A stretch of DNA of 43,005 nucleotides from Myxococcales bacterium (GCA_037441385.1 JBBISH010000044.1:1-43005); one strand, 5' to 3'. Positions 1 to 20,107 are shown, numbered from the stretch's first letter. The notes: generated by a model from the sequence alone, not told the origin. Program-made: numbers and translations.

Positions 1-153
1 GTCCGCACGAGGCGGCGACCATCGCATGCTTCTGCAATCGAAAACAGGTCTTTCGCCTGTTATTCTCTAATAATTTGGAATTACTTTGAAAGTCCGGATC
101 TGGAACCGGTGGGCAAGGCAGAGCGCAAGACGAAACGAATCGGGAGACACATC

Positions 154-1407
154 ATGAGCAAAGTCAGCATTATCGGCGCCTACAACACCAAGTTCGGGTC
201 CCTCGTCGAGGTCAAGGACCGCATCTCGTTCAAGCAGAAGGTGGACCAGAAGACCTTCTACGACCTGATCATCGAAGCCGGGCGCGGCGCCATCGCCGAC
301 GCGGGCCTGAAGGCCGAAGACATCGACGGCGTGTGGATCGGCGCCTGCGCCCCGTCGCGCTTCGTCAACCAAGAGCACATCGCCCCCATCGGCGTGATGA
401 TCGACCCGGCCCTGCGCTTCAAGCCCATGACCCGCACCGAGGCGGCCTGCGCGTCGGGCTCCGTGGCCATCTACGACGCGATGTACGCCATTGAATCCGG
501 GCGGTTCAAGAACGTGCTGGTGGTGGGCGTGGAGAAGATGAACCTGCTGGACACGCCGTCCATGACCACCGCGCTGGCGACCTGCTCGTACTGGCCCGAA
601 GAGGGCGGCAAGGGCGCGACCTTCCCCGGGCTTTTTGCCGAGCTGGCCAAGGCTTACATCGCCCACTATGGCCTCAGCGACCAAGAGTGGCGCGAGCAGG
701 CGGCCCACGTGGCGGCGCTGTGCTACAAGAACGCCAGCCACAACCCCCTGGCGCACGTGCAGAACGGCCCGCAGACCGCGGCCGACATCCTGGGCCTGCC
801 GGACAGCGGCAAAGGCAGCAACATGATGGTGGCAGCTCCGCTGCGCCTGCACGACTGCTCGCTGGTGACCGACGGCGCGGCGGCGGTGGTGCTGACCTCG
901 ACCGAAAACGCCATGAAGACGCGCGACAAGGTGGTGGAGATCGCCGGCATCGGCCACAGCGAGGAGCACCTGCCGCTGTCGCAGCGGGCGGTCAAGTGGG
1001 AGCTGCAGGCCGGCAAAGACGCGGTGCGCAAGGCGTTTGCCGAGGCGGGCGTCACGGCCAAGGACGTCGACATCGCCGAAGTGCACGACTGTTTTACCAT
1101 CAACCAGCTGCTGACGACGGAAGCGCTGGGCTTCTCGGCCGACGGCAAGGCGGGCCAGGACTACGTGGCCGGGCGCTTTGGGCCGGACGACGAGCAGGTG
1201 TGCATCAACCTGTCGGGCGGGCTGAAGGCCAAGGGGCATCCGGTCGGCGCCACGGGCGCGTCGATGCACGCGCTGGTGTACAAGCAGCTGATGGAAGAAC
1301 CGATTGGGCTCAAGCCGACCAAGAAGGTGCCGAAGGTGGGCGTGACGTTTAATGTCGGTGGGTCGGGGGTGACCAACTGCGTTACGGTTTTGCGGCGGGT
1401 GAAGTAG
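154..1407 (+). CDS. Thiolase (acetyl-CoA acetyltransferase), SCP2-type
   Basis: Motifs EAACASG (active Cys), EVHDCF (SCP2-type loop) and NLSGGLKAKGHPVGATG; GGAGA RBS before ATG 154; strong GC3 bias. Confidence 0.93.
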   Translation: MSKVSIIGAYNTKFGSLVEVKDRISFKQKVDQKTFYDLIIEAGRGAIADAGLKAEDIDGVWIGACAPSRFVNQEHIAPIGVMIDPALRFKPMTRTEAACASGSVAIYDAMYAIESGRFKNVLVVGVEKMNLLDTPSMTTALATCSYWPEEGGKGATFPGLFAELAKAYIAHYGLSDQEWREQAAHVAALCYKNASHNPLAHVQNGPQTAADILGLPDSGKGSNMMVAAPLRLHDCSLVTDGAAAVVLTSTENAMKTRDKVVEIAGIGHSEEHLPLSQRAVKWELQAGKDAVRKAFAEAGVTAKDVDIAEVHDCFTINQLLTTEALGFSADGKAGQDYVAGRFGPDDEQVCINLSGGLKAKGHPVGATGASMHALVYKQLMEEPIGLKPTKKVPKVGVTFNVGGSGVTNCVTVLRRVK

Positions 1408-1555
1408 GCGACAAGCGGGACGGCTTGCGCTGACATTCGGGCAATACCGTAGAGAAGCTGTCCGCGGACGACGCGGGTGTGCTCGCGAAGTGTCTTGGCG
1501 CCGCGAGGCGGGACGATGGCCGCAGAGGAGCCTGCGTGTCAGGTGGTGTGCGCCG

Positions 1556-1972
1556 ATGGACAAGGACGCTCGGATGGTCAGTCAACAGGACTTCGAAGCC
1601 GTTTTGGCCGAGATCTGTGCGTCTGGGCCTGCTAGCCACGGAGATGACCTGCTCGGCATGGAGATCGACGCCGACGTCTTTCTCGGTGACCCTACGTATT
1701 CTGACTGTGAGCCGGGACTGTGGCAGGACATGACGGTACGAATGGCCCGCACCGGCGAGTGGCTCATCCTCGGCGAGGCAAAGGGACACGTGGCGGACAG
1801 TTCAGCCATTGCGGACGCGCTCTCGCGGATCTGGTCGGGCCACCTTCGCTACCGCTTCCGGGCCGCGCATGTAGTGGTGTCTACGCCAGAGCTCGTTGAC
1901 CTCCGGGCGGTGACTCAAATTGGACCGGGTGGGCTCTGGGTCACAGCCAACGTGAGAGTACGCTTGACCTGA
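1556..1972 (+). CDS. Hypothetical protein (start 1556 or 1574)
   Basis: Open frame with globular, acidic composition (QQDFEAVLAEI...WVTANVRVRLT); no recognised motif. Confidence 0.6.
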   Translation: MDKDARMVSQQDFEAVLAEICASGPASHGDDLLGMEIDADVFLGDPTYSDCEPGLWQDMTVRMARTGEWLILGEAKGHVADSSAIADALSRIWSGHLRYRFRAAHVVVSTPELVDLRAVTQIGPGGLWVTANVRVRLT

Positions 1973-2012
1973 GCGAGCCAAGCATTTGGAGCGCACGAAC
2001 AAGGGCACACTG

Positions 2013-2162
2013 CGGATCACCGACTACGGGCGGCGCGATCAAGCGCCCCACGTGGCGGCGCTGTGCCACCGCAATGTCAGCCACAACTCCCTGGCGCACG
2101 TGCAAAACGGCCCGCAGACCGCGGCCGACATCCTGGGCCTGCCCGACAACGGCAAGGGCAGT
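2013..2162 (+). pseudogene. Diverged internal fragment of the upstream thiolase (matches ~670-819)
   Basis: HVAALCHRNVSHNSLAHVQNGPQTAADILGLPDNGKGS versus HVAALCYKNASHNPLAHVQNGPQTAADILGLPDSGKGS; long nucleotide identity. Confidence 0.9.
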
Positions 2163-2280
2163 AGGCGTCGAAATCCCTCGTTGATCGGCGCGGCGGTCGG
2201 GCGTACGCTCCAATAGGGGTGCTCGGGCGGCCGAGCCGCCCAGATGAGCGGCAGAGAGAGTATCGTGGGAGCCCCAATCG

Positions 2281-2586
2281 GTGCCTAAACTGTACGATTA
2301 CCTTGGACTTATCGTGCTTTTCTACGCGAATGAGCGCGAGCCCGTCCATGTGCACGGCAAGCGCGAAGGTCGTGAAAGCAGGGCCGAGTTGATCTACGTC
2401 GAGGGCCAACTCCGAGAGGTCCGCTTCACCGGAGTTCGCGGCAAAGAACCGCTCGCTCCGTCCGAAATGGCCGATTTCCGCGACCTGGTGACCGCACGGG
2501 CCGACGAGATCGTGCAGCGCTGGATCGACTTCTTCGTGCTGCACAAGACGTTCGCTCCTGAGCACATCTCGAGGAGGATCCGATGA
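2281..2586 (+). CDS. DUF4160-family protein (putative TA toxin)
   Basis: MPKLYDYLGLIVLFYANEREPVHVH...WIDFF pattern; ATGA overlap with the DUF2442 gene. Confidence 0.85.
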   Translation: MPKLYDYLGLIVLFYANEREPVHVHGKREGRESRAELIYVEGQLREVRFTGVRGKEPLAPSEMADFRDLVTARADEIVQRWIDFFVLHKTFAPEHISRRIR

Positions 2587-2855
2587 ATACGGTCAGCATC
2601 GCAGAGGCGGCTCAGGTAGGACCCCACCGGCTGCGGCTGACGTTCAGCGACGGCAAGGTCCAACTGGTCGACTTCGGGCCGTTTCTTGCGGAGCACGGGC
2701 ACCCCGCCATTCGGGCGTGGCTGGAGCCGGAGCAGTTCAGCCGCTTCCGCATCGAGTACGGCGACTTGGTTTGGGGCGACTACGAGCTGTGTTTTCCAAT
2801 CGCGGACTTGTACGAGAACCGCATCGATCGAGACCGGGTTGATGTGTCTGCGTGA
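2583..2855 (+). CDS. DUF2442-family protein (putative antitoxin)
   Basis: LRLTFSDG..VDF...F..FRIEYGDLVW...LY pattern; translationally coupled to DUF4160. Confidence 0.85.
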   Translation: MNTVSIAEAAQVGPHRLRLTFSDGKVQLVDFGPFLAEHGHPAIRAWLEPEQFSRFRIEYGDLVWGDYELCFPIADLYENRIDRDRVDVSA

Positions 2856-2954
2856 ACGCGGCGGGGGTGAAGGCCTCATCCGGCGAAGCCACGGAAGGAG
2901 AAGGCGAAGCTCGCCAAGGATGCGCGCCGACATCCGGAGGAGCGTAGCCTCCGA

Positions 2955-3383
2955 TTGCCCAAGCCCGACGTGGTGGCTGTGCAGGCGCTGGGGGATCACA
3001 CCGTGGCGGTCACGCTGGCCGATGGGCGGAGCGGCACGCTGGACCTGAGCTGGTTGCTTTGCTACCCGGCGTTCGCTCGGCTGCGTGAGCCGCAGTATTT
3101 TCCCCGGGTTGGCGTCGCCTATGGGACGCTCGCTTGGCCGGAAGGCGAGCATGTCTCGCCAGAGTCCGTGTCGGCACGGTTGCGGGTGGCGGCGGCGCGA
3201 ACTCGCGCAGTCTTGTCGGCTTGCACCAGAGTAAGTCGGGCATGTGCCCCCGCGTCAGCGATGCGAGCGCGAATGCGAGGTGGCCCGAGGGAGGGCCGCC
3301 TTCGCCGGGGCCGCAAGAACCTCAGACCCTTCAAGAGCTTCCTTCGGCCCGGCGACCGCAGCGCGACGGTCTGGCGCAAGTAA
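2955..3383 (+). CDS. Solo DUF2442-family protein; domain ends ~3195 and the frame runs on into the structured repeat
   Basis: VAVTLADGRSGTLDL...FARLREPQYF..VGVAYGTLAWPEGEHVSPESV; GGAGG upstream of the TTG start. Confidence 0.7.
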   Translation: MPKPDVVAVQALGDHTVAVTLADGRSGTLDLSWLLCYPAFARLREPQYFPRVGVAYGTLAWPEGEHVSPESVSARLRVAAARTRAVLSACTRVSRACAPASAMRARMRGGPREGRLRRGRKNLRPFKSFLRPGDRSATVWRK

Positions 3384-3463
3384 CCACGACTTCGCAGGCA
3401 CCTCTCTTCGCCAGACCGGGACGCCCACTTGCGACCCACCCAGCACGGCAACCAGCTGCTGAC
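3246..3463. repeat. Structured ~180-bp repeat (family S), copy 1, with 3' extension
   Basis: GCCCCCGCGTCAGCGATGCGAGCGCGAATGCGAGGTGGCCCGA...CGCCAGACCGGGACGCCCA, shared with copies at 5504 and 8617. Confidence 0.95.
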
Positions 3464-3776
3464 CACAGAGAGGCTGGGCTTCTCGCCGGATGGCAAGGCG
3501 GGCCAGGACTATGTGGCCGGGCGCTTTGGGCCGGACGACGAGCAGGTGTGCATCGATCTGTCGGGCGGGTTGAAGGCCAAGGGGCGCCACTTCGTTGGCC
3601 AAATTGGGGCGGTCGGTGCCACGGGCGCGTCGATGCACGCGCTGGTGTACAAGCAGCTGATGGAAGAGCCGATTGGCTTGACGCCGACCAAGAAGGTGCC
3701 GAAGGTGGGCGTGACGTTCAATGTCGGTGGGTCGGGGGTTACGAACTGCGTTAGCGTTTTTCGGCGGGTGAAGTAG
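3449..3776 (+). pseudogene. Duplicated 3' end of the thiolase (matches 1101-1407) with a net 21-nt insertion in the GHP motif
   Basis: NQLLTTERLGFSPDGKAGQDYVAGRF...VTNCVSVFRRVK; KGHPVG is replaced by KGRHFVGQIGAVG. Confidence 0.92.
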
Positions 3777-3858
3777 TTGCTGGGAGCGGGCGGCGGGGCC
3801 AAGGGGCCGGTGCGGGGATTTACGCGCGTAAATCTGGGCCCGGACCGATACACAGGAT

Positions 3859-3897
3859 CTTGCGGCGGGGGCAGCGGAATTTGGCTCCCGCCGCGAG
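3859..3897. terminator. Hairpin between convergent genes (terminator-like); diverged copy near 8105-8145
   Basis: CTTGCGGCGGGGGC / GCTCCCGCCGCGAG stem; no U-tract. Confidence 0.35.
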
Positions 3898-3938
3898 GTT
3901 CTGGATGACTGAGGTTCGGCGCGGGAACCCTGCGATAG

Positions 3939-4184
3939 CTACCCGCCCTCGACCAGCCGCAGCTCGGCGACGAGCGTTTCCGGCGCAATATCCTGCTCGT
4001 GTGGCCACGTCACCGCCCCGAACAAGATTCCAACCTGGTTGAAGTAGTGCACGTCGCGCAGCTCGCGGAAGACGCCGAAGTCCAGGTAGGGCTTGCAGTC
4101 GAACTCGCCGCGCCGACCGCTTTCCAGTTCAACCAGCAGGCAGTAGTTCGGCAAGGGTCTTACGGATTTGACGTCCCAGTCCAT
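3939..4184 (-). CDS. DUF2442-family protein
   Basis: MDWDVKSVRPLPNYCLLVELESG...FRELRDVHYFNQVGILFGAVTWPHEQDIAPETL. Confidence 0.88.
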   Translation of the reverse strand: MDWDVKSVRPLPNYCLLVELESGRRGEFDCKPYLDFGVFRELRDVHYFNQVGILFGAVTWPHEQDIAPETLVAELRLVEGG

Positions 4185-4191
4185 GCGCGCC

Positions 4192-4457
4192 TCACAGCGG
4201 AGCGATCTTGTAGGGTTGCTCGCCGCTGACCGCCAGCTCCCAATCGGCGACCAGTTCATCGCGGTGCAACTCGATCCAGGCCTGCACCAGGCGGAGCTGC
4301 TTGCGCGGCGGTTCGCCGCCCAGAATCTGCCATCCGCGAGGCCGATCGAAGCTTCGTACTCAGCGTACCTGGCGTGGATGTGCGGCAGGTTGTGGTGCTG
4401 GTTGTCCAGAGAGTAGAGCCGGATGATGATGCCGTAGAACATGGGAATAGTCGGCAT
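4192..4457 (-). pseudogene. DUF4160-family gene with a 1-nt frameshift near 4328
   Basis: MPTIPMFYGIIIRLY...HNLPHIHARY; continues in another frame as ILGGEPPRKQLRLVQAWIELHRDELVADWELAVSGEQPYKIAPL*. Confidence 0.85.
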
Positions 4458-4727
4458 TGGGAACACTCCGACGGACTCTGCGGCGCCTCGTTGCGCCACA
4501 GGCCGGCGTGCAGAGGAATCGCCAACAGGTCAATGAATTTTGGCGCGCGGAACGAGCGGACAGGTCCGACGTCGACTCAAGGCGACGTTGCCGGTGCGAC
4601 GAAGCGGCCGCATAATCTGCCTGAGAGGCGGTGTGCTCGGTAAAGAGCGACCACGCCCCGCATGAGATGGTTGCGGTGCGGCAGCGATACGCCGGCAGGG
4701 CTCAGAATGCGGCGAGGAAATTTCCCA

Positions 4728-5492
4728 ATGCTTTTGTTCGCCTGCCTTGCGTTGCTTGCGCCAGCCGCGAGCTGGGCCGAGCGTCCGACGGGACCGCCAG
4801 CAGTCTGTCTGGCTGACAGGGTATGGGTGTTGGACGTCCAGAGTGTGGAATCTTGGCCAACCGCGACGCTAGAGACGGCCGCAGGTGCCTGTACTTTTCG
4901 CGTAGCCAGGTTGTTCACGAGCGGTTGCGTTGCCATGATCTCGTGCGGTGCGCCGGCCGTCGGGGCTGTACGCCGTCCCGCGCAGCGTCGCGACAAAGGG
5001 CGTGCGGCCGTCGACCTTGCGCCAACACCGTGGCCGTTCGACCACAACGCCATCGCGATCATAACCAGCACGGGCCTGCGATTTGCGCATGACGTACCCA
5101 CGACCGAACTGGAATTTGTCCAGGCATCGGCGCGCTGCCCATGGGCAGGCCCTAACCACGAAACGCCTGCATCCTGCAGCGTGGAGCCGGAGCCATGGCG
5201 GCGCAGGCCAAGTGCGCTCCGATTCGCAGGCCGACCGGCCACGGGTCGGTTGCACGAATTCGCAGAGGAAATTCCACCCCCGTGTCCAACACGAGCGTGG
5301 GTGGCGGGGTACAAGACGCACGATCGGGAGTGGACGGATTTGGTGCGTGGACCCAGGAGCGTCGGGTCCATGGCGGTCTGTTTCGACCCGACGGCAGGAT
5401 TGCTGTGGGCATTCTCCTTCTCGGGGGTGGTTGGGTGGGACGGTGACGTCGAGCTCTTCATGAGCGAAATGGCCATTCGCCAGTTGCCCTGA
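4728..5492 (+). CDS. Hypothetical exported protein
   Basis: Signal-peptide-like MLLFACLALLAPAASWA; long ORF with atypical codon usage; stop lies 11 nt before repeat S copy 2. Confidence 0.5.
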   Translation: MLLFACLALLAPAASWAERPTGPPAVCLADRVWVLDVQSVESWPTATLETAAGACTFRVARLFTSGCVAMISCGAPAVGAVRRPAQRRDKGRAAVDLAPTPWPFDHNAIAIITSTGLRFAHDVPTTELEFVQASARCPWAGPNHETPASCSVEPEPWRRRPSALRFAGRPATGRLHEFAEEIPPPCPTRAWVAGYKTHDREWTDLVRGPRSVGSMAVCFDPTAGLLWAFSFSGVVGWDGDVELFMSEMAIRQLP

Positions 5493-5503
5493 GCCAAAGT
5501 CCG

Positions 5504-5722
5504 GCCCCCGCGTCAGCGATGCGAGCGCGAATGCGAGGTGGCCCGACGGAGGGCCGCCTTCGCCGGGGCCGCCGGAACCTCAGACCCAGCAAGACCTTCC
5601 TTCGGCCCGGCGACCGCAGCGCGACGGTCTGGCGCAGGCAGCCGCGACCACCGCCCGAAACCCTCTTCGCCAGACCGGGACGCCCAATTGCGACCCACCC
5701 AGCACGGCAACCAGCTGCTGAC
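5504..5722. repeat. Structured repeat S, copy 2
   Basis: Same ends and stems as copy 1; also shares the tail TTGCGACCCACCCAGCACGGCAACCAGCTGCTGAC. Confidence 0.95.
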
Positions 5723-6120
5723 GCTGCCTTGCCGTTTCCATACGATGCCAAGGCAGCTGCGGCATCGCCGGGCTGAGCTGGCCGGGCATGCTTCGTTCTG
5801 AGGCGATCCGTGAAACTCCGCAAATACCGTCGCGTTCGGGAGGCCCGTCTGCCAAAGGGCCAGTTTTCCATTGCCTATCAGGATCTTGTCAAGTCCGCGC
5901 ACAACCTGTGCTGCTGTCCATGCGGCCCGCCTGAGCGCTGCGGAGTTCTGTAGTTGCCAGCCGGCAAGGCAAGTGTTTGACCGAGGCCAACCGCGAGATC
6001 CTACTGGTCACGGCGACGGCCCCTACGGTACGCCTTGCGCCGCGACTAATTTCGGGCTAGATTCCGCCCGATCCTGGTCAAAACCTGGCCCGGATTTCAC
6101 TTCGGCCAAAGGTACGCGCC

Positions 6121-7386
6121 ATGCTGATTCGCTTCTCGGTCGAAAACGTTCTCTCCTTCCGCGCCCGCACCGACCTGACCTTTGTCGCGACGGCACGCAA
6201 AGAGGCGCCCGGCTACTCCCTGCCGACGCGGCACGCCAAGCACGGCCTGCTGCCGGTGGTTGGCCTCTGGGGCGCGAATGCCTCGGGCAAATCGAATTTG
6301 CTGACGGCGCTGTCGGCGCTGCGATCGAGCGTGGAGCACTCCTTCACCAAGCTGCAGCCCGACCAGCCCGTGCCGTGGCACCCGTGGATGATGCGCAAGG
6401 GCAAGGATTCCCCGCCCTCGTACTTCGAGTTGGAGTTCGTCAACGGCGAGGAGGTGCGCTTTCAGTTCGGCTACCGTCAGGATGCCTCGGGGTTTTGCGA
6501 GGAGTGGCTCTACCGCTGGGCCCAGAACCGGCCACAGCTTCTGTACCACCGCGACCATGCCAGGGCAGATCCTTGGTATTTTGGCCCGAACTTGAAGGGA
6601 AGCCGCAAGGAGATCGCGCAGGCGACGCGGCCGAATTGCCTGTTTCTATCGGCGGCGGCACAGTTCAACCATGCGGATCTGCTGCCAGTGTTCGAGGCGA
6701 TTACGCAAGGCGTGGCCAGCAGTGGTCCGGTCTTTCTTGGCACGGCTCCCATCTTTCTTGAGGACGCGCCACTGCTTTCTGCTGGCCTTCGACCCACGCT
6801 CATCGAACTCCTACGCTTCGCCGACACAGGCATCGTGGAGGCCGATGTGCAGCAACTCCGTGCAGAGGAGTACGAAACGGTGTTGGACTTTCGGCCAGAC
6901 GTGGAACCGGCCGCAAAGGGGCGCGTGGTCGTCCACTTCGTGCACGGTACAGACTCCATGGATGGTTGGACGGCGCCACCAACAATGGAGAGCGCTGGCA
7001 CGCACAGGCTACTCTCACGGATTTCGGAGATATTGTCCGCACTTCGCTCAGGCTCCCTGCTCATAGCCGACGAGTTCCACGCCGGCCTGCAGCCCGAACT
7101 TGCCGGGGCCCTCATCGACCTGTTCCTGTCGCCCGAAACCAACCCACACGGCGCGCAACTGCTGTTCACCGCGCACGATCGCGCAGCGTTGAGCCGTCTG
7201 CGCAGCGACGAGGTAGGTCTGATCGACAAGGACCGTCACGGCCAGTCGGTACTGCGCTATGCTTCAGACTACAAAGGTGTCCGCAGCCGCGACAACCTCC
7301 GGGTGGCGCACGAGCAGGGGCGCATTCGCGGCGTGCCCGTACTTGGGGACTTGAAGAGCGCGATGGCCAAGGCGGTGCGGGCATGA
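6121..7386 (+). CDS. AAA_21/ABC-type ATPase (RloA/AbiLi-like putative defence ATPase)
   Basis: MLIRFSVENVLSF start, Walker A GANASGKSN, signature ESAGT, Walker B LLIADE, H-loop QLLFTAHD, C-terminal GRIRGVP. Confidence 0.92.
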   Translation: MLIRFSVENVLSFRARTDLTFVATARKEAPGYSLPTRHAKHGLLPVVGLWGANASGKSNLLTALSALRSSVEHSFTKLQPDQPVPWHPWMMRKGKDSPPSYFELEFVNGEEVRFQFGYRQDASGFCEEWLYRWAQNRPQLLYHRDHARADPWYFGPNLKGSRKEIAQATRPNCLFLSAAAQFNHADLLPVFEAITQGVASSGPVFLGTAPIFLEDAPLLSAGLRPTLIELLRFADTGIVEADVQQLRAEEYETVLDFRPDVEPAAKGRVVVHFVHGTDSMDGWTAPPTMESAGTHRLLSRISEILSALRSGSLLIADEFHAGLQPELAGALIDLFLSPETNPHGAQLLFTAHDRAALSRLRSDEVGLIDKDRHGQSVLRYASDYKGVRSRDNLRVAHEQGRIRGVPVLGDLKSAMAKAVRA

Positions 7387-8034
7387 CGCGCAGACCCAAG
7401 CCGTCGGCCGACTCGAGCGGCGCGACAGCCAGTTGCCGCAGGTGCCGATGCTGGTCATCGCTTGCGAAGGCAAGACCGAGGAGCGGCTATTGACGGCCCT
7501 GAGCGGCCACCTGCGGATCCCGGCGAAACAGATTGAAGTCAGCGGGCAACAAGGCGTTCCACGCACCGTGGTGGATGCGGCTGAGAAGATGCGCGACGAA
7601 CAGCTCGCCAAGCTGCCCCGCCGCGAGCAAGCCACTGTGCCGCTGCAAACCTGGGCCGTCTTTGACCGCGACGAGCACGAATCGTGGCTAGAAGCGTGCA
7701 ATGCAGCCGCAGGCAAGCGCATTGAGCTGGCGATCAGCAATCCCTGCTTCGAGCTCTGGGGCATCCTGATGTACCAGGACCAGACGGCCCACATCCACCG
7801 CCACGAGGCGCAGCGCGTCCTGTCAGGCTTGCACCCAGCTATCACCACGACGACCATCCCTACCTGGACATGGATTGGCGCCAGGCGTTGGACGGTGAGG
7901 GCCAGCCTGTCAAGGCGGCGCAGACCCGGGCGCAGCGATTGCTGCAAGCTCGCGCGAGTAACCGGGATCCGCACGGCAACCCTTCGACCACATTTCATCT
8001 CCTCGTCGCGCGGCTATTCGAACTGGCGCAGTAA
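7383..8034 (+). pseudogene. RloB-like protein, frameshifted near 7405 and 7838
   Basis: ATGA overlap with the ATPase; LVIACEGKTE, WAVFDRDEH, ISNPCFELW; the terminal GNPSTTFHLLV..LF lies in a different frame. Confidence 0.85.
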
Positions 8035-8185
8035 CGTGCCTGCACCCCGCCTGTGCTTGAACTGCAAGCGGTGGATGGGCGGGAGTGCAGGCAGGTACAC
8101 AGGATTTTGCGACATGGGCAGCGGAATTTGGCTCCCGCCGCGAGGTGCTGAATGACCGAGGTTCGGCGCGGGAACCCTGCGACAA

Positions 8186-8431
8186 CTACCCGCCCTCGAC
8201 CGGCTGCATCTCCGCCACAAGCGTCTCCGGCGCAATATCCTGCTCGTGTGGCCACGTCACCGCCCCGAACAAGATTCCGACTTGATTGAAGTAGTGCACG
8301 TCGCGCAACTCGCGGAAGACGCCGCAGTCCAGGTACGGCTTGCAGTCAAATTCGCCGCGCCGACCGCCTTCCAGTTCGACCAGCAAGCGGTAGTTGGGCA
8401 AGGGTTTTACGGATTTGGCGTCCCAGTCCAT
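8186..8431 (-). CDS. DUF2442-family protein (paralogue of 3939-4184)
   Basis: Near-identical protein, plus ~90 bp of shared downstream DNA. Confidence 0.88.
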   Translation of the reverse strand: MDWDAKSVKPLPNYRLLVELEGGRRGEFDCKPYLDCGVFRELRDVHYFNQVGILFGAVTWPHEQDIAPETLVAEMQPVEGG

Positions 8432-8438
8432 GCGCGCC

Positions 8439-8546
8439 TCACAGCGGAGCGATGTTGTAGGGTTGCTCGCCGCTGACCGCTAGTTCCCAATCGGCGAGTA
8501 GTTCATCTTGATGCAACTCGGCCCAGGCCTCGACCAAGCGCTGCTC
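8439..8546 (-). pseudogene. 3' half of a DUF4160 gene, 5'-truncated
   Basis: Reverse strand reads EQRLVEAWAELHQDELLADWELAVSGEQPYNIAPL*; no N-terminal half. Confidence 0.8.
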
Positions 8547-8616
8547 GCGGCCGTCACGGTAACAGCGCCTGTGCCCTGGAGCAACGCCAAAGAGGGGCTA
8601 ACCCCGCAGCCGGGGA

Positions 8617-8798
8617 GCCCCCGCGTCAGCGATGCGAGCGCGAATGCGAGGTGGCCCGACGGAGGGCCGCCTTCGCCGGGGCCGCCGGAACCCGAGACCC
8701 AGCAAGACCTTCCTTCGGCCCGGCGACCGCAGCGCGACGGTCTGGCGCGGGTAGCGGCGACTTGGGCCGCACCTCCCTGCGCCAGACCGGGACGCCCA
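8617..8798. repeat. Structured repeat S, copy 3
   Basis: Same 5' end and stems; diverges after GGGACGCCCA. Confidence 0.95.
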
Positions 8799-9208
8799 AA
8801 GACCGAGTCACAGCAGGTCCTGGCCAGTTGCGAGTGGCAGTCCGTGCGGGCGCGTTGGCCGGAAATTCGGTTGAAATTTGCGTTGGCGCGGTCGCCAAGC
8901 CCGGACGGTGCGGTCTGGCGGCCGCGATGTCGGCACAGCGACCTGCGGTTCCAATGAGCTCGAGTCCACACATCCCGTGCATTCACGCCCCCATGACAAG
9001 CACGCCGGTTCTGGCCCAAGCAAGAGCCGGAGTCTTCGAGCCGCTTCGAACGGAAGCCCAATGACCACCAAACCGGGGTGATCTTCTCGTCTATCCAGCC
9101 AATACTACAGGCATTCCGGACATCCAGGGCTTGCCCGCGACTTGAAATGGACCGGAGGTACGGGCACGATGGCGGCGGCGTCTGTGCACCCCCAATTTGG
9201 AGACTTTG

Positions 9209-9991
9209 ATGACCGCGTCGACCCACATCGCCTCGCATGGCTACTTCTGTTGGCACGAACTGATGAGCCGAGATCCGGCAGCGTCTGTACCCTTCTACGC
9301 GGCCGTCGCCCGCTGGACCGCGGACAAAATGCCCATGCCAGGCATGGACTATACGATCTTCCGGACCGGCACCCAGGGCATGGCGGGCTTGATGCAGCTC
9401 CCGGCCGAAGCCGCGGCGATGGGCGCGCCCAGCCAATGGATCGGCTACGTGGCCGTCACCGATATCTCGGAAACTATTGCCGAAGCTAGCAAGCGCGGCG
9501 CACACGTCCACACCCCGCCGATGGCCATCCCAACCGTCGGCACCTTTGCCGTGCTCGCCGATCCGTGGGGCGCGGCGTTTGCCGTGCTCCAGCCCGAAAC
9601 CAATGGCGATCTGGTGCCTCCGCCCGCCATCCCGGGCGACTTCGGCTGGAACGAGTTGTTTACCGACGACCCCAAGGGTGCAGTGGCCTTCTACCAAGCA
9701 CTGTTCGGCTGGGATCTCCAGCACATCCACCCGATGGACCACCTGGGCGACTATCACCTGCTCGGCCTGGGCGGTCGCGAATTCGTTGGCCTTTTCCAAC
9801 GTCCGCCGCAAGTGCCCAAGTCCATGTGGCTCAGCTACATCGAGGTGGCCGATCTCGACGCGGCCATCGCGGCCGTCAAGAGCGGCGGCGGCACGGTCCT
9901 GGTGGGGCCCATGGAAGTCCCTGGCGGCACGCGGATCGCCCAGCTGGCCGACAACTTGGGCACGAGGATCGCACTGCACAGCAAGGGCTAG
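9209..9991 (+). CDS. VOC/glyoxalase family protein (two domains)
   Basis: FCWHELMSRDP...FY, WIGYVAVTDI, GTFAVLADPWGA; second domain FGWNELFTDDP...WLSYIEVADLD. Confidence 0.92.
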   Translation: MTASTHIASHGYFCWHELMSRDPAASVPFYAAVARWTADKMPMPGMDYTIFRTGTQGMAGLMQLPAEAAAMGAPSQWIGYVAVTDISETIAEASKRGAHVHTPPMAIPTVGTFAVLADPWGAAFAVLQPETNGDLVPPPAIPGDFGWNELFTDDPKGAVAFYQALFGWDLQHIHPMDHLGDYHLLGLGGREFVGLFQRPPQVPKSMWLSYIEVADLDAAIAAVKSGGGTVLVGPMEVPGGTRIAQLADNLGTRIALHSKG

Positions 9992-10361
9992 AGGCTCGGC
10001 CAGTTGCTGAACATGCATTCCCTGTGTCGTCCTCCCGGCCGCGTCTGCGGCCCCGTACCACCCGCCGCACCTGCGAATTACCGTCGCCAACCAGACGGGC
10101 GCGGCGCTGCCGGCGGAACAACTGCGCATCGATGACGCCTACGAGCGCTTCAAGTCGCCAGGGGTCGATCTACGGCCCGGTCCTTGCCCCAGGCCAGACG
10201 TTGACCATTCCGGTGGTCCTGATCCCGACCGCCATCGACCCGCAAGGGTGGAAGGCGTACCTCAAGTCCGGCTTCATGGGCGGACCCGACCTGGGTCGAA
10301 GGTCACCTCGTCGCGCCGCCGCGCCTCAGGTTTGCAGTCGCGGGCGGTTGCAGGCCCGGCC

Positions 10362-11290
10362 ATGCTGGACAGCGTGTGCACCGGGCGGGATACTGCCCCC
10401 ATAGAGCCCGGCACCCTGCTCGCTCGTCGCTTCCGCTTGGACCGCTACGTGGGCCAGGGCTGGATGGGTACGTTTTTTCGCGCCCTTGGCACAGCCACCG
10501 GCCAGTGGGTTGCGGTCAAAGTCCTGCGCCAGAGCGAACCCGACCGAGTGGACCGGTTTGCCCGCGAAGCCCGCGTGCTCGCTGACCTGAACCGTCCCGC
10601 GATCGTCCCCCACACTGCCGACGGCCAAACACAGCACAGCGAGCCGTTCCTGGCGATGAAATGGCTAGAGCACCGATCAGAAACCCAGTCCTGGGGGCAA
10701 ACGTCGCGGCGGGTCGCGCCAGTGCAGGGCTCTGGGGCGCCCGCTTGCGACCCACTGAGCATCCACGAGTTTTCGTCAGCGAGTGGTCGCGTTGCTCTGA
10801 ACCTCGGAGATTTGTGATTGGTGTTCTAGCGCCACGGGCAGACGACCCCACCACAGCCTGTCGCCGAGAGTGATCCGGTCGTGGCGGCGATCGCGCGGCA
10901 GCTGGAGCTGTTGGGAGGTCGGGTTTCGCCGCTGGCCGACGGCTCGATGGTCGCGTTCTTCGGCGCGGCTCGACGCGCGCTTGGATGGCGTGCGGCGCCC
11001 AAGCGGTCTGTGCCTGCTGGACGAGTTCGACAGCGCACCATCGGCCCGAGCGCTGCTGGGCCGCCAAGTGCCTCTGCGTGGCCGGCAGCGCGAGGCGGGA
11101 CAGATTCTCGGCGAATTCGATAGCTGCTTGCGGCAAGGGCGTTCCCGGCTGCGCCAAGTCGTCGGCCCAGGAGGCATCGGCAAGACACGGCTGTGCGAGG
11201 CCGTGTTGCCGGCGATGACCGAGCGCCCGACTTGGCTTCGGTCGGTGCGCTGCGACCCCGGCGGCGGGGGGACGGCGTTTGCGGCCATGA
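10362..11290 (+). pseudogene. Degraded Ser/Thr kinase + AAA ATPase gene interrupted by a MITE
   Basis: RFRLDRYVGQGWMG...VAVKVL...RFAREARVLA...FLAMKWLE, then the MITE; downstream fragments LRGRQRE and VVGPGGIGKTRL (P-loop). Confidence 0.75.
10665..10829. mobile_element. MITE (family B), ~165 bp, CTAG at both ends
   Basis: TIR CTAGAGCACCGATCAGAAA / TTTGTGATTGGTGTTCTAG (16/19 match); second copy at 19944-20107. Confidence 0.88.
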
Positions 11291-11371
11291 GTTTGCCGGC
11301 GGGGGCAAGCGGTCCCGCTACGGGCCACGGCCAACGCCGCTTTGCACACAAATGCGGAACTGCCCCCGGCG

Positions 11372-12640
11372 TCAATAGCCGCGGATCAGCATCTGGGTCG
11401 GGCACATCACCCAGCGGTGGACGACGCTCGGCGCAGAGTTGAGGCCGCTGGGAACCACCGTGAACGTGAGTTTCACGCCCTCTTCGTGCCACTCTTGGTG
11501 GCGCCGCTGAAATTCTTCCACGCACAGCGCACCGTTGATCAGCGAGACCCACGCATCCCAGATGGCCGGGCCAACAAGACCGTTCAGCCCCAAGATGACG
11601 CGCGGGAACTCGGGGACGCGGAACATCTCGCCAGCCACCCAGCCACGTCCGCCGCCTTCGACGCGCCTGGAGACGCGGTTCATCTCGCGGACGATCTGCG
11701 CTTGCGAGGCGTAGTCATTGTGGTGCAGCACCTCGTTGGTCATGCAAAGGCCCGACTCGTCTGGCACTGGCAGCCCATCGGCGACGTTGGTGCGACACAC
11801 ATAGACTTGTCCGCCCTCAAGCTGCGCCGGCTCGCCGGTCTGCGGGTCGACCAACTGCTTCTGCCCAAACAGGTCCTCGCCCATCGCGAGCACGCGGACC
11901 GAACCGTTGGCGATGAATTTCTCCATTACGGGCGAGAAATAGAGGTTGAAGCCGACGACGGCGAATTCGGGGCGACGGAGCGCGGCGACCTCGTCTTCCG
12001 AGATGCCGATGACCCACACCGGCATCGGCCCCGAGGCCGGCTTTTCGACGCGCCGGACCAGCGCCTGGACCGAATTGGTGACTTCGCTGGTCAGGAGCGA
12101 CACGCCAGCGTGGAACAGCGCGCCCTTGGCGAAGTAGTAGCCCATCCACACCATGTCCGAGGCAAGTCGCGCAAGCGTATGAAACCGCTGCGGTTCAATG
12201 CCCACCGACTCCAGCTCGTGGTCGGGATGACGCTCTTGGTAGTAGTCCATGTACTCGGTAGGCAAGGGCATCTGCTGCCACCAGTCGGGAAACTGGAGGC
12301 GACCGTCGCTTCCGCGCACGAAGCCCCAACTCTCGACCAGTTCCAACGCCGCGGCCGCACCGTCGACTTGCGCGGCGGCCATCTCGCCGGCTGCCTGCCA
12401 AATTCGCTGGTTGTGGGGGTACAGTTTCTCGTAGTAGCCGGCGAGTTCCTGCAGCTCGGCCAGCATGTCCGCACCTTGCCTGAACTCGGGCAGCCCCAGC
12501 GCGCGCATTTCGTCGCGGCGCCGCTGCACCTCGCCCGCGTTCTTCCAGCGGAGCACCCGCGGTCCCAGCGGCAGCGTCTGCACCGCCCATTCTTGCCATC
12601 CCCCACCCGACTTGGTCCGCGTCTGCGCTTTCTTGTTCAT
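11372..12640 (-). CDS. Hypothetical protein with a degenerate class I SAM-methyltransferase-like C-terminus
   Basis: GGAGG RBS before MNKKAQ; LPVPDES..MTNEVLHH...IVREMNRV..G..WVAGE; no GxGxG motif. Confidence 0.6.
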   Translation of the reverse strand: MNKKAQTRTKSGGGWQEWAVQTLPLGPRVLRWKNAGEVQRRRDEMRALGLPEFRQGADMLAELQELAGYYEKLYPHNQRIWQAAGEMAAAQVDGAAAALELVESWGFVRGSDGRLQFPDWWQQMPLPTEYMDYYQERHPDHELESVGIEPQRFHTLARLASDMVWMGYYFAKGALFHAGVSLLTSEVTNSVQALVRRVEKPASGPMPVWVIGISEDEVAALRRPEFAVVGFNLYFSPVMEKFIANGSVRVLAMGEDLFGQKQLVDPQTGEPAQLEGGQVYVCRTNVADGLPVPDESGLCMTNEVLHHNDYASQAQIVREMNRVSRRVEGGGRGWVAGEMFRVPEFPRVILGLNGLVGPAIWDAWVSLINGALCVEEFQRRHQEWHEEGVKLTFTVVPSGLNSAPSVVHRWVMCPTQMLIRGY

Positions 12641-12880: not shown

Positions 12881-15800
12881 TCAAGGTCGCGCCAGACCGG
12901 GCACCGGCCGCCAATCTCCGGTCGCTTGAAAGGCCGCCCAGAAATACGGATGGCGCAAACGGAGCTCTGGTCCCTGGTCGCCCGAGGGAAGCAGGGGCTC
13001 GGACGACCGCGCCACGCCTGCAGATCCGGGCCGGCCATGGGCCAGATTCAGCTTGGCGGTGCGCAGCGCCTCGGCCACGCCGCGCCCCGCAACCAGGTGG
13101 GCATACATGCCCGTCATCAAATCGCGTGTAGCTTCGTCGTCCACCTTCCACAGCGACATGACCACCGAGCGGGCGCCCGCCAGGCCAAACGCACGCTGCA
13201 GACCCTGCACGCCGTCGCCCCACTGCAGGTTGCCCACGCCCGTTTCGCAGGCTGAGAGCACCACCAACTGAGTGCCGGCCAAGTTGAGGCCGCTGGCTTC
13301 CAGCGCCGTGAGCAGACCGTCTTCGCCCGTCTGGGCCTTGGCGTTGCTCCCGGTCAAGGCCAACCCCGACTGGAGCAGCGGATTCTCGGGCGTGGTCGCC
13401 GGGCCCATCGCCTCCGCTTGGCTTGGCAAGAAGAAGCCGTGGGTCGCCAAATGCAGGACTTGCGGGGCCACGACGGCCTTGAGCGCACTCTCGCTGGCCG
13501 CGCGACCGATCCACAGCTGCGACTCAGCCAGCAATGCCGCGACCGCCCGACCTTCGGCCTCTGCGCCCGGCAAGGGCCGAAACTGCAGCGAGTTCGCGTC
13601 ATTCGACCGCCGCGGGGCAGCGTCGCCCGAACCCAGGAGTGCGGCGTCAAAGTCGGGATTCGCCAGCACCACCGCCCGCTGCCTGGGCGGACGCGGCACC
13701 GCGTTCTCGATCAGCTCGCGCCCGGCGGCCACGCGCAGAATCGGGCGTGTCTCGACCATGTAGCGCCCATCTTCGCCGACCAGGGCGTCAAACGGCAGCA
13801 AGTGCAAGGCCGCGTCGGGCGCGACCACCAGCGTCGCATCGGCCGGCAGCTGCGCGCGCAGGGGCGCCAGGATCAGGGCATCCAGCTTGCGCCCCAGCGC
13901 GTCTACATCTTGGCGTCGTGGATCGGCGAGCGCAGCCCGCCACCTGGGAACCAAGTCGGCCACGGGCTGCCACGGTCCAAGGTCGACAGCCCGCGTGGGC
14001 GCTCCGCGCTGGACGGTCAGCGCCGCCAGCCGCTGGGGGCCCATGCCCTCCAGCACGCCGTTGGGGTCGTCCTGCCAGGGTCGCCACAACATATACTCAA
14101 TCAGCACATAGTGCTCTGGAAGCGCGGCGCGCAGACCCGCCAAGGTCGCGGTCGGCGCCGCCCCCTCACCGCGCAACAGCGCATCGGCCAGCTTCCGTTC
14201 GATTTCGCGGATTTCCTCGGCCATGGCCAGCACGGCCTGGCGATCGCCGCGTGCGTCCAGCGCTGCCGTGGCGGTTCGACTGCGCAAGACCTGTAACTTG
14301 GCTTGAAGATCACGGACCTCGGGCGTCACGCTGCCTTGGAGGAGCCGGGCCTGGTCGCGCTGGGCGTCGAACAAGCGCCCCTTGCGCTGTAGCACGAGTT
14401 CGCCAGCCAGCTCGGCCACTTCGGGCTGCCCGGGCAGGCGCTGCAGGGCGAGGGCCAGCGCCATGACGACGTCGGCGCGGGCCTCGGCCAAAAAGGCCCG
14501 CTTGTCCGCCTCGCTGCCGACCGCCAAGAGGCGCTGGATTTGGCGCTCTTGCAGCGCGACATACGCACGAAACTCGCTGACTGCGCTATCGTTCTTCCCA
14601 AGGCTGAGTTGTGCTTTGGCCAGAGACAACCGCGCAGGCGCGGCGTTCGCCGAATCACTGCCAAACGCCTCGCGCGACCACTCGAGCGCCTGCTGGCAGC
14701 GCGGTATCGCCGCGGCCGCCTTGCCGGTGAGCCGCTCGACCTCGCATAGGTGTCCGACCAGTTGCGCCGCGAGCGTGGGCCGGGTGCCGGCCGACTGACC
14801 GATTCCTTCCAGGCCTGCCCGGAGATTGCGCTCGCCAACGGCCCGGTCGCCGGCGCGGAATTCCAGCCAGCCCAGCTCGGCGCGGGCCACGCTCACCATC
14901 AGGTGGTGCGCGCCCACGAGGTGGCTGGTCACCGCGAGCGACGCCCGCCGCGCCTTGACCGCACCCTTCAAGTCGCCGCGCACGAGCGCTAGGGTGGCGC
15001 TCTCGTCGAGAAAGATCTGTTCGAAGACGCTGCCGCGCAGCTCGGCCGTGAACCCGTCGCCGGCCGCGTGCAGGGCGCGGTCCGCATCGGCAAGCCGCCC
15101 CATGAGTCGCAGCACCGTGGCCCACTCGCAGGATAGCGCTACGAAGTCGGCCGAGTCCGTAGCGGCCGTTGCGTGGAGCAGGGCGAGCCCTTCGCGCAAG
15201 TCGCGCTCAGCCTTGGGGTAGTCCGCGTTGGCCCGCGCGAGCATGGCGCGAAACCGCAGAACCTGGGCCATGGCTCGGTCGCGCCTTGGGCCCGCCGCTG
15301 CTTTGGCCAACACGGCGGTGGCTTCGCCAAGGTCCTTTTCGGCCGCCCCAAGGTCATCCGCCAGCATCGCCACGCCCGCGAGTTCGACCCAGCAGCTGGC
15401 CCAAGCCTCGGCCGGGGCGGACGCCCAGTAGCGAAGCACCCCTTGCTTGCGATCGAGGATGGCGCGCAACTTGGCCAAATTCATCGAGCGATGCTTCTCG
15501 CAATCGAGCATGGCGTCGAACACCGCCACCAGGAACTCGGGCGTGGGCGATCCACGGACGGCGCAAGCCAACGTGCGCTCCCACCAGTCGATCGCCTCGT
15601 CGTAGGCCGCCAACTGCTGAGCTGCCGCTGCAACGATGGCCGAAACCATCATGGCGCTCGCGGGGTTGGGCCCTTCGCCGCGCTCGGCGATGGCCACCGC
15701 CTTCTTGCCGTGCTCACGGGCCTCGGCCCACTTGTGCAACCCTGCGCAAGCCTGCGCCGCGGCGGCGTGGGCCACCGCCAGGGCCGGATCATCGGCAGGC

Positions 15801-16213
15801 ACCCGTCCCCGCAGCCGTTGGAGCAGCCGGTCGAGGCGAACCAGCGCCGCGGCGTGCTGGCCGGCACGCAACTGGGCGTCGATGATGGCGAACTCGGCCT
15901 CCAGCTGGCTCTGCAGTTGGTCAGAGGCGTCGGGCGGTGGAGTGGCGCCCGCTGGACATGGGTGCACGACCAGCGCGACCGGGATCAAAGCGGCGAGCAG
16001 CAACGCCCCAACCCAACGACCGCGGCTGCCGGCAAAGGAGCGAGCCGTGCCAGTGGCCGAACCCGGTACGGGCTGACTCCCACGAACCCTGTCTGACTCC
16101 CCCCTGCAGGGCTTCTGTGTTCCATACTGCAACTCGCATGAATCAGGCAGGAATCCCGGATCGAGCCCGAGCAACTGTCGGAGTTTTCGAGCCGAATTGG
16201 AGGGATTCCGCAT
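12881..16213 (-). CDS. CHAT (caspase-like) domain protein with N-terminal TPRs; true start probably nearer 16030
   Basis: LHLATHGFF and LVVLSACETG (His/Cys dyad), SLWKVDD, HPYFWAAF; kinesin-light-chain-like TPRs; hydrophobic N-terminal segment. Confidence 0.9.
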   Translation of the reverse strand: MRNPSNSARKLRQLLGLDPGFLPDSCELQYGTQKPCRGESDRVRGSQPVPGSATGTARSFAGSRGRWVGALLLAALIPVALVVHPCPAGATPPPDASDQLQSQLEAEFAIIDAQLRAGQHAAALVRLDRLLQRLRGRVPADDPALAVAHAAAAQACAGLHKWAEAREHGKKAVAIAERGEGPNPASAMMVSAIVAAAAQQLAAYDEAIDWWERTLACAVRGSPTPEFLVAVFDAMLDCEKHRSMNLAKLRAILDRKQGVLRYWASAPAEAWASCWVELAGVAMLADDLGAAEKDLGEATAVLAKAAAGPRRDRAMAQVLRFRAMLARANADYPKAERDLREGLALLHATAATDSADFVALSCEWATVLRLMGRLADADRALHAAGDGFTAELRGSVFEQIFLDESATLALVRGDLKGAVKARRASLAVTSHLVGAHHLMVSVARAELGWLEFRAGDRAVGERNLRAGLEGIGQSAGTRPTLAAQLVGHLCEVERLTGKAAAAIPRCQQALEWSREAFGSDSANAAPARLSLAKAQLSLGKNDSAVSEFRAYVALQERQIQRLLAVGSEADKRAFLAEARADVVMALALALQRLPGQPEVAELAGELVLQRKGRLFDAQRDQARLLQGSVTPEVRDLQAKLQVLRSRTATAALDARGDRQAVLAMAEEIREIERKLADALLRGEGAAPTATLAGLRAALPEHYVLIEYMLWRPWQDDPNGVLEGMGPQRLAALTVQRGAPTRAVDLGPWQPVADLVPRWRAALADPRRQDVDALGRKLDALILAPLRAQLPADATLVVAPDAALHLLPFDALVGEDGRYMVETRPILRVAAGRELIENAVPRPPRQRAVVLANPDFDAALLGSGDAAPRRSNDANSLQFRPLPGAEAEGRAVAALLAESQLWIGRAASESALKAVVAPQVLHLATHGFFLPSQAEAMGPATTPENPLLQSGLALTGSNAKAQTGEDGLLTALEASGLNLAGTQLVVLSACETGVGNLQWGDGVQGLQRAFGLAGARSVVMSLWKVDDEATRDLMTGMYAHLVAGRGVAEALRTAKLNLAHGRPGSAGVARSSEPLLPSGDQGPELRLRHPYFWAAFQATGDWRPVPGLARP
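16085..16200 (-). repeat. Intergenic repeat R, degenerate copy
   Basis: Reverse complement reads TCGAAAACTC...CGGGCTCGATCCGGGATTCCTGCCTGATTC. Confidence 0.55.
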
Positions 16214-16659
16214 CACTGGTATCGACCTAACATGAGGTAAATACTCAAGATCTCGGGCGACTGCCCGTTGGAGCGCAAAGAGGCGACGTGCGAACTGGCC
16301 AGGCCAAATTCGCCAAGGCTCGCGCCATGCTGCTCCCACGCCCAGGCTGGGGACGTGGCCACGGCCAGCCCAACCGCCACTGCCGCCACTGCACTGCCGA
16401 TTCCCGTGGGCATGGGTCTCTCCGTTGGCCGTAGCCATGCCGGCCGGCCGAATGGGCTGGGTCCCAGTACAGCGGTGGCCGCGGCCCCCGTGCGCAAGGA
16501 CGGAGCTACAATCGCATGTGAGCATATTCTTGCGATTCCGTGGGCGTCAAGGCGTGACCAGCTGCGGTTTGGTGGCGAGGGCGAGCAGCAACGCCAGGCT
16601 CTGGCAACGACGCCGTGCGGTTCCGTTCGCTGCAGATCGGGCGACTTGGGCATCGCTGT

Positions 16660-19780: not shown

Positions 19781-19947
19781 CGGCGCGCCCCCTTCGCCGA
19801 CGGATATGCACCCCACCTGATTCGCGCCTGTGGGGTTTCTCTGGCCCGGTATGCAGCTGCCAACAATCAGGCGGGGACCCGGTTCGGGTCCGAAGAATTG
19901 CCTGAGTTTTCGGTCCGATTCGGGCAGATCGGCTGTGAAAAGGCTAG
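19778..19947 (-). repeat. Intergenic repeat R, long copy
   Basis: Reverse complement begins CTAGCCTTTTCA as at 24066 and 42934, and ends GGGGCGCGCCGCGC. Confidence 0.8.
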
Positions 19948-20107
19948 AGCACCGATCAGAAACCCAGTCCTGGGGGCAAACGTCGTGGCGGGTCGCGGCT
20001 GTGCCTGGTTCTTTGGGCCCGCCTGCGACCCACTGAGCATCAACGAGTTTTCGTGAGCGAGTAGTCTCGTTGCTCTGACCCTCGGAGATTTGTGATTGGT
20101 GTTCTAG
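19944..20107. mobile_element. MITE family B, copy 2
   Basis: Same TIRs and CTAG ends as 10665-10829. Confidence 0.88.

Follow-up and report, generated by a model that had tools for sequence, protein, structure and literature searches.

We analysed a 43,005-nt contig of a metagenome-assembled Myxococcales bacterium genome (GCA_037441385.1, contig JBBISH010000044.1; this whole contig is "the window" in what follows), in which copies of a structured repeat, here called S, alternate with toxin-antitoxin (TA), abortive-infection (Abi) and orphan genes. The array lies behind an intact thiolase-like gene whose orthologues in the related genomes G007, G009 and G001 are found at 82-91%. Past the 3' edge of the last S copy there is no homology with G007 until 24386. 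Positions 1408-24386 therefore form a variable island, whose left end carries the S array; it measures 23 kb in the window and 8.2 kb in G007. The source genome, G000 (6.6 Mb, 90.9% complete), was compared with ten relatives, giving 11 genomes of the genus, all of them metagenome bins and most of them fragmented.

A repeat search of the window returned three direct 182-nt copies of S, all of one family, with gapped identities of 91.3% (S1/S2), 89.6% (S1/S3) and 91.8% (S2/S3). The 5' edge of the repeat is sharp, falling between CC and CCGCGTCAGCG, and on the other side S1 and S2 have 36 more nucleotides in common beyond the core, to 3463 and 5722. The array is built of three units stacked into the 3' half of the thiolase gene, each consisting of a thiolase 3' piece, cargo and S, in that order, with the intact thiolase first and the displaced gene ends downstream (Table 1). 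The displaced piece behind S1 shows 91.5% identity with the intact gene and 90.5% with G007, and a piece similar to the stray thiolase copy at 2017-2161 sits directly 3' of an S copy in the relative G005.

A sequence-only reading of this stretch had described S as three same-orientation copies at 3246, 5504 and 8617, each at a module boundary, and both statements are borne out: a solo DUF2442 frame enters S1, an open reading frame (ORF, 4662-5492) ends 12 nt upstream of S2, and a truncated DUF4160 gene, reduced to the last 23 profile positions (43-65 of 65), has its lost 5' part facing S3. It had also called the cargo unrelated, which is too strong, since two cargo blocks (B1 and B2) repeat each other at 90% and thiolase pieces recur, so that the units are not wholly unrelated DNA. 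Neither of the two orphan genes that it named has a family match, and the first (1490-1972) has no DNA match in the ten relatives; the second, the ORF that ends before S2, has weak coding statistics (GC3 0.69, GC2 0.61) and may be no real gene. Its "AAA ATPase + RloB" pair does carry Pfam AAA_21 and RloB, and can now be named more closely as AbiLi and AbiLii from PADLOC matches. Finally, its statements that S lacks attC ends and that the window lacks a recombinase hold: the RYYYAAC (R'') and GTTRRRY (R') pair occurs in none of the three window copies and none of 40 genome copies on either strand, 30-nt flanks included, and no recombinase or transposase domain was found in 36 window ORFs (16 in 1-12.7 kb, 20 in 11.4-42.9 kb).

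Table 1. Features of the S array in the window, and members of two protein families that recur near S elsewhere (positions in the window unless a genome is named)
Feature	Position	Strand	Remarks
Thiolase-like gene, intact; conserved left flank of the island	109..1407	+	Pfam Thiolase_C_1, Thiolase_N
Orphan ORF, 160 aa; cargo of unit a	1490..1972	+	no Pfam, NCBIfam or PADLOC match
Stray copy of thiolase nt 674-818	2017..2161	+	87% direct repeat
DUF4160 (2281-2586) / DUF2442 (2583-2855) pair	2281..2855	+	Pfam
Solo DUF2442 frame entering S1	2955..3383	+	Pfam DUF2442 over residues 6-72
S1	3246..3448	+	core 3246-3427 plus 21-nt extension; covariance-model match 3250-3429, 149 bits
Displaced thiolase 3' end (nt 1101-1407) with 24-nt insertion	3449..3776	+	directly 3' of S1 and its 21-nt extension
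Block B1: DUF2442 + frameshifted DUF4160	3849..4293	-	90% repeat of 8096-8540; Pfam
Orphan ORF, 276 aa; coding status doubtful	4662..5492	+	no family match (Pfam, NCBIfam, PADLOC)
S2	5504..5722	+	core 5504-5685, extension to 5708, then 14 nt identical to thiolase nt 1101-1114
S2, covariance-model match	5508-5688	+	143 bits
AbiL-type abortive-infection pair	6121..8034	+	AbiLi 6121-7386, AbiLii/RloB 7433-8034; PADLOC 2e-68, 4e-13
Block B2: DUF2442 (8186-8431) + 5'-truncated DUF4160 remnant (8484-8552)	8096..8552	-	Pfam; repeat of B1
S3, last copy	8617..8798	+	core 8617-8798; covariance-model match 8621-8800, 139 bits
205-248 aa family, G000	C80:14124-19846, C139:5033-6560, C37:4261-4860		
205-248 aa family, G005	C170:60-806, C35:4562-5206		
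ParB-HTH-like family, G000	C13:73923-74579, C102:16698-17414, C106:7594-8238		
ParB-HTH-like family, G005	C52:1539-2315		
ParB-HTH-like family, G007	C231:14533-15192		

S is a large family. An iterated nhmmer profile found 42 copies, 40 of them full length, on 25 contigs of G000, with a consensus of 177 nt; the E-values of the full-length copies, 1e-15 to 1e-39, exclude a chance family. A covariance model built from the 40 full copies detected S in six of the 11 genomes of the genus (42, 22, 17, 11, 3 and 1 copies), the carriers besides G000 and G007 being G001, G002, G005 and G009. Outside the genus the model gave one weak match, in one other genus of the family, and 16 genomes representing other families of the class had none. 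When 185,579 species genomes were scanned for a pattern, 30 loci came back, of which 27 hold S, all in five Myxococcota-type metagenome bins; the other three (Anaerolineaceae, Mycobacteriales, Acrocarpospora) are chance pattern matches. Scanning metagenomes with a 23-nt S core yielded eight short loci, four with S, whose contexts added nothing new.

The copies are held together by a common fold. The RNAalifold consensus has 39 pairs in seven helices, arranged as a closing stem, a three-way junction and an inner four-way junction, with three branch points in all and conserved unpaired bases at the junctions. Standard pairs fill 98.3% of 1557 cells, against 91.1 +/- 0.3 in shuffled alignments, and none of 500 shuffles reaches any of the observed pairing measures. 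Compensatory changes occur at 25 of the 39 consensus pairs, a count inflated by kinship among the copies; controls in which the partners were slid by 1-3 columns retain that kinship and show double changes at 5-7 pairs. The fold belongs to one strand: over 64 copies there are 63 G-U/U-G cells versus 6 A-C/C-A cells of 2364, and the alifold consensus energy is -58.7 for the top strand versus -47.0 for the bottom strand. Inside locus lineages the stems are near invariant at about 20% overall divergence (non-canonical cells 1/221 and 4/222). Insertions of 17-23 nt and single-base indels among the copies rule out a coding reading. S is a strand-specifically folded, non-coding, genus-specific structured element. 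Rfam holds no match to it at E <= 1 (cmscan of window 1-12000); an HDV-like ribozyme match (RF02682) further along, at 11052-11122, scores 25.5 bits against a gathering score of 44 (E 0.27) and is probably due to chance.

Part of the family is arranged in arrays. Ten G000 contigs hold 2-6 copies spaced 0.6-6 kb apart, and all 17 extra copies lie on the strand of the first, including copies that are not sisters in C167, C178 and C102. Arrays fetched from relatives are likewise co-oriented, the exception being one weak inverted partial copy in G005:C52. Between the copies lie AbiEii, HipBA, VapBC, AIPR, OLD-like AAA_15/21 ATPases, DUF4143, HigB, RhuM and MNT/HepT, with GmrSD nearby, as well as orphans and some ordinary secreted proteins. 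The commonest neighbour is DUF4160/DUF2442, a pair that is treated as a TA-like module in the literature and that has no relative by sequence in the PDB; it was rejected as an S-specific partner, being present in the S-negative genomes G003, G004, G006 and G010 too.

At two conserved hot spots the contents of the arrays differ between species. At the aconitase-B locus of three genomes, one S copy stands 15-70 nt past the gene stop and a second further on, with unrelated DNA between them: orphans and an AAA_15/21 ATPase in G000; DUF2442 and DUF6188, a middle S and then orphans in G007; a ParB-HTH protein and HigB in G005. The 3' end of the unit there follows a conserved extension of about 60 nt. 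At a second locus, the C139 type, the cargo is a PKD protein in G000, DUF4143 plus DUF4160/DUF2442 in G007, and DUF2442/DUF4160 and RhuM in G005. At both loci homology among the three species breaks at the S edges. The thiolase locus of G007 has the simple order thiolase, B block, S, and the pair formed by B2 and its S has an orthologue in G007:C168 at 78-79%. Elsewhere S has merely stayed in place: the single-copy locus C41 / G007:C363 is fully syntenic, so that S can remain unchanged since the species split.

The copies themselves multiply locally. In a tree of 64 copies sampled from G000, G005, G007 and G009, clades track loci (thiolase, aconitase, C139 type and others) across three species, and within these clades each genome's copies group as sisters. 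They are 89-92% identical in the window, 90% at the G000 aconitase locus and 98% at that of G005, versus 75-83% between species, which indicates that S multiplied locally after the species split or was homogenised by conversion. Flanking blocks were duplicated together with S in the window and in the six-copy array of C64, and no cargo block of at least 80% identity over at least 280 nt is common to different G000 arrays. Local sisters with co-duplicated flanks fit local growth better than a capture of cassettes, each with a site of its own. The joints have one fixed side: S with 8-21 nt meets the thiolase near nt 1101 at two places in the window, near nt 1259 in G005:C140 and near nt 730 in G005:C128, so the break on the S side stays within roughly 8-21 nt of its 3' end while that on the gene side varies. 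As the displaced piece, the intact 3' end and the G007 orthologue are about equidistant (90.5-92%), an old local duplication and a Campbell-type insertion of a circle from a relative look the same.

To explain these results we propose that S is a strand-specifically folded, resident repeat of the REP/REPIN class (repetitive extragenic palindromic sequences and their hairpin-forming doublets) that acts as the recombination seam of variable-gene arrays, a proposal to which we give an even chance; S is placed in this class in the broad sense only. Copies of S stay for long times at fixed intergenic places beside conserved genes, and these places are hot spots of variable genes. There S multiplies locally, in direct orientation and with adjoining DNA, the break falling within about 8-21 nt of its 3' side and at a variable point upstream, as the joints described above show; the DNA between two copies differs by species, with homology breaking at the S edges, as at the aconitase-B and C139-type loci. 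In the last step the intervening DNA may be exchanged via recombination at or within S, which could serve as portable homology or be the folded strand on which an enzyme supplied in trans would act. We infer that S itself causes the breaks.

Several observations weigh against this proposal. Of the 25 contigs with S, 15 hold a single copy, several among ordinary genes, for example between a thioredoxin and a class-V aminotransferase (Aminotran_5) gene or between a transglutaminase-like and an Fpg-type glycosylase gene; S can thus sit quietly, and its link with variable genes is a tendency and no rule. The absence of a cargo block shared between arrays means that cassette movement is not demonstrated, and the sister copies could stem from gene conversion. 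At this divergence S may be the sole recognisable remnant, which would inflate the apparent exactness of the boundaries, although VapB DNA at 72% identity is still detected adjoining S. The orientation of S gives no signal relative to local GC skew (10 of 28 loci agree), and none of the 294 ORFs scanned around S copies or in the window has a recombinase or transposase domain. Order across repeats also depends on the assemblies, all genomes being metagenome bins. Public run data consist of DNA contigs from one subsurface-metagenome study; an independent assembly of the best-holding run spans all of window 1000-9400, its depth being even at about 10-17 for most bins and 27-30 for two, but the pieces listed for it end at repeats, which leaves the order of the units resting on the deposited assembly. 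One joint in these contigs that "goes back" is accounted for by the stray thiolase piece.

The sequence-only reading had gone further, suggesting that S is the recombination or capture site of a cassette-accumulating system acted on in trans. Two of its expectations hold, in that S clusters in arrays with variable TA and defence cargo, in G000 and in relatives, and that cargo differs at S boundaries; a co-occurring recombinase or HUH gene specific to S did not turn up among the 294 ORFs. It had also named scatter beside core genes as an outcome that would speak against it, and part of this is seen, in the 15 contigs with a solitary copy, several of them among ordinary genes. The idea of capture is thus supported in part, by the arrays and cargo swaps, and opposed by the missing enzyme, by the local sister copies with their co-duplicated flanks, and by the many copies nested in REP-like inverted repeats to which a REP-associated tyrosine transposase (RAYT) is tied. 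In its fullest form, S would be the folded single-strand recognition site of an undescribed, non-IntI cassette-exchange system, a kind of integron distributed over many hot spots, in which a trans-acting HUH or tyrosine enzyme of these myxobacteria, encoded elsewhere, excises and inserts units of cargo plus S at resident S copies. We consider this unlikely. A conserved, strand-specific fold as in attC, co-orientation that extends to non-sister copies, sharp unit ends (5' between CC and CCGCGTC; at the aconitase locus after the conserved 3' extension), swaps at the S edges and cargo of integron type all speak for such a site, and homogeneous sites are known within sedentary chromosomal integrons (PMC12614218). 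The local origin of array copies, the lack of any cassette common to two arrays, the many solitary copies and a multi-junction shape unlike known single-hairpin sites in single-stranded DNA all argue the other way.

So does the search for an enzyme. The best score for an integron integrase in G000 was 71.4 bits (TIGR02249) against a cut-off of 265, although at 90.9% completeness its absence from the genome is not proven. Five tyrosine recombinases, one serine recombinase and one IS110 gene are present in G000, all on S-free contigs; there are six Y1 matches, none adjoining S, and Y1 genes occur in 10 of the 11 genomes of the genus. Nothing links any recombinase or Y1 gene of G000 to S. A search for IS91/Y2 gave nothing, its control being equally silent. 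S as an IS200/IS605 palindrome-associated element (PATE) or TnpB guide-RNA scaffold was discarded, as no TnpB-type match exists in G000 and the control search matched eight genomes.

Alternatively, S could be a passive selfish repeat, a relative of miniature inverted-repeat transposable elements (MITEs) or REPINs that survives in dispensable island DNA and lies at boundaries incidentally. One argument for this comes from a 15-nt REP-like motif, R (GGGGGCAWTTTCTAC), which lies within 400 nt of 27 of the 40 full S copies, on one or both sides, and forms R-S-R units of about 290 nt, for example at C14, C63, C112 and C113. G000 has about 135 copies of R at up to 2 mismatches, 90 of them exact; exact copies number 17 in G007, one in G005 and none in eight genomes of the genus. 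R adjoins Y1/RAYT-like genes in G000 (C69, C128, C173) and in G007, and close RAYT orthologues (>=85%) occur only in these two genomes. One such gene (L093, C69:33266-33957) has an HUH-type "HYH" motif and two R copies before it, and the others in G000 lie at C128:1-524 and C173:2-394. About 22 S copies with R flanks group in one clade, all of them from G000 and with no G005, G007 or G009 members among the sampled copies, which points to a recent expansion in G000. The patchy distribution of S in the genus (42, 22, 17, 11, 3, 1 and 0 copies), its single copies among ordinary genes and the several other repeat families in G000 would also suit a passive repeat.

We nonetheless regard this explanation as doubtful. 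R and RAYT are an ordinary REP-RAYT system that picked up S: the genomes G001, G002, G005 and G009 have S with 0-1 copies of R and a best RAYT match of at most 61%, and the S copies of the window, like the thiolase, aconitase and C139 clades, have no R, so REP-RAYT does not explain S. A cognate RAYT, as known for REPs and REPINs, was found for R, which flanks and co-occurs with it, and not for S. Random insertion would not yield 17 of 17 co-oriented neighbours or joints fixed at the S 3' side, nor would it explain why three species differ, at two loci, in exactly the cargo that lies between homologous S copies. Stems also remain intact at orthologous sites across species. Empty sites were sought for the R-S-R copies at C14, C7 and C9 and no clean one was found, the flanks being non-syntenic or occupied in G007; in G005 a thioredoxin gene is absent along with S. 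A MITE of a DDE transposon was rejected, the window copies having no terminal inverted repeats and about ten R-flanked copies inspected visually no target-site duplication.

It is more improbable still that S is a functional RNA (processing, stabilising or ribozyme-like) transcribed with or beside its cargo and arrayed because modules carry it: the several junctions with conserved unpaired bases, G-U tolerance on one strand only, structure under purifying selection and the frequent position of S a few to about 60 nt 3' of a same-strand ORF (for example 9 nt after L010, 9843-10589) speak for it, but cargo orientation is mixed (the G005 aconitase cargo and window blocks B1 and B2 run opposite to S), S copies track the locus and not the cargo, and Rfam gave no match.

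Other features of the island and of S neighbourhoods can be set beside these results. The DUF4160 match of B1 is divided over two frames, 4237-4326 and 4323-4433, which marks a frameshifted TA-like gene. The AbiLii/RloB gene also appears frameshifted, with RloB profile positions 2-134 in the frame that opens at 7433 and a plausible C-terminus in the frame 7870-8034; the break marks a pseudogene or else stems from faulty assembly. Some 21 nt of another motif (TTGCGACCCACCCAGCACGG-like) lie 3' of S1 and S2 (3428-3448 and 5688-5708) and again at 10734-10761; this motif is also found without S, including in a tandem array of 115-nt units (G000 C6:104218-104462), where it abuts the R motif. To the right, the island holds a CHAT-TPR protein (12881-16522), a REase-ARP nuclease (22507-24009) and kinases, and is bordered by a TLP1-type thiolase-like gene; positions 19804-19923 and 20104-20313 are copies of two other short repeat families, of about 130 and 210 nt, with dozens of copies each in G000 at 85-95% and unrelated to S. 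Two protein families recur near S (Table 1). One, unannotated and of 205-248 aa, stands beside S in G000 and G005, once starting 6 nt from it, and matches nothing in Pfam, NCBIfam or PADLOC. The other, of 220-258 aa and weakly ParB-HTH-like, lies 0.3-2 kb from S at four loci in three genomes; it has no NCBIfam match and weak PADLOC PDC-S02 matches on three members. Copies of both occur away from S too.

Defence and TA arrays are usually attributed to integrons or to integrase-bearing islands, and here a structured, strongly covarying repeat marks the seams at many chromosomal sites without integron parts. A titles-level search of the literature on Myxococcota gene cassettes and attC, on RAYT, REPIN and TA, and on integrase-free defence arrays found no such arrays described. 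If S promotes exchange, it would represent a second bacterial way of organising swappable gene modules, as well as a practical marker with which to locate hot spots of variable genes in myxobacterial genomes. A passive S would still be a new structured nucleic-acid motif, well supported and missing from Rfam.

Set beside known systems, the S arrays share features with several of them. The pdif modules of Acinetobacter plasmids are small TA or accessory modules bounded by XerC/D sites, for which no dedicated integrase is needed. S likewise bounds small TA and accessory modules with no dedicated integrase at hand, but pdif sites are 28-bp double-stranded Xer sites in alternating orientation, whereas S is 177 nt long, folded and co-oriented, and no dif-like core was identified in it, no search aimed at one having been made. 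Integrative or cis-mobilisable elements that accrete in tandem at a gene's 3' end offer another parallel: every window unit opens by repeating the 3' end of the target gene, which leaves the thiolase intact and a pile of displaced 3' pieces downstream. In contrast to such elements, the window has no integrase, the duplicated piece is 307 nt at 91.5% with no short identical att core, and the break varies on the gene side (about nt 730, 1101 and 1259) and is fixed on the S side.

REP sequences are found at the join points of tandem duplications in Salmonella. S resembles REPs, bacterial interspersed mosaic elements (BIMEs) and REPINs, with their RAYT (Y1, HUH) transposases (PMC3116915, PMC3337134), in being intergenic, structured, multi-copy and lineage-specific and in its long vertical persistence at fixed sites. 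One S subfamily lies between two inverted copies of R, the motif that flanks a RAYT-like gene. S is far larger and more complex than these repeats, however, and occurs in genomes without R or a close RAYT; direct-repeat arrays that bound swappable genes are no described property of REPINs.

A parallel in operation is with integron arrays, clusters of attC sites lacking integrases (CALINs) and sedentary chromosomal integrons, which also have co-oriented structured repeats at module boundaries, strand-specific folding, TA, Abi and orphan cargo, homogeneous sites within an array and no integrase beside it. Co-oriented sites that divide gene-sized modules, a mark of integrons and CALINs, are what S displays (17/17 on 10 contigs). 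The attC site is one imperfect hairpin, roughly 55-140 nt long and with extrahelical bases; S, by contrast, has 177 nt, seven helices and three branch points and forms no single hairpin. It is without the RYYYAAC/GTTRRRY cores (0/40), in a genome in which no IntI was found. Arrays of S number at least 10 per genome and adjoin different core genes, versus one attI platform; there are many solitary copies as well, and the copies in an array arose as local duplicates whose flanks were duplicated with them. In their working the S arrays are like CALINs or sedentary chromosomal integrons, and every sequence-level test of membership sets them apart: S is neither an attC site nor a part of an integron, yet in our proposal it is the seam of a cassette-like array.

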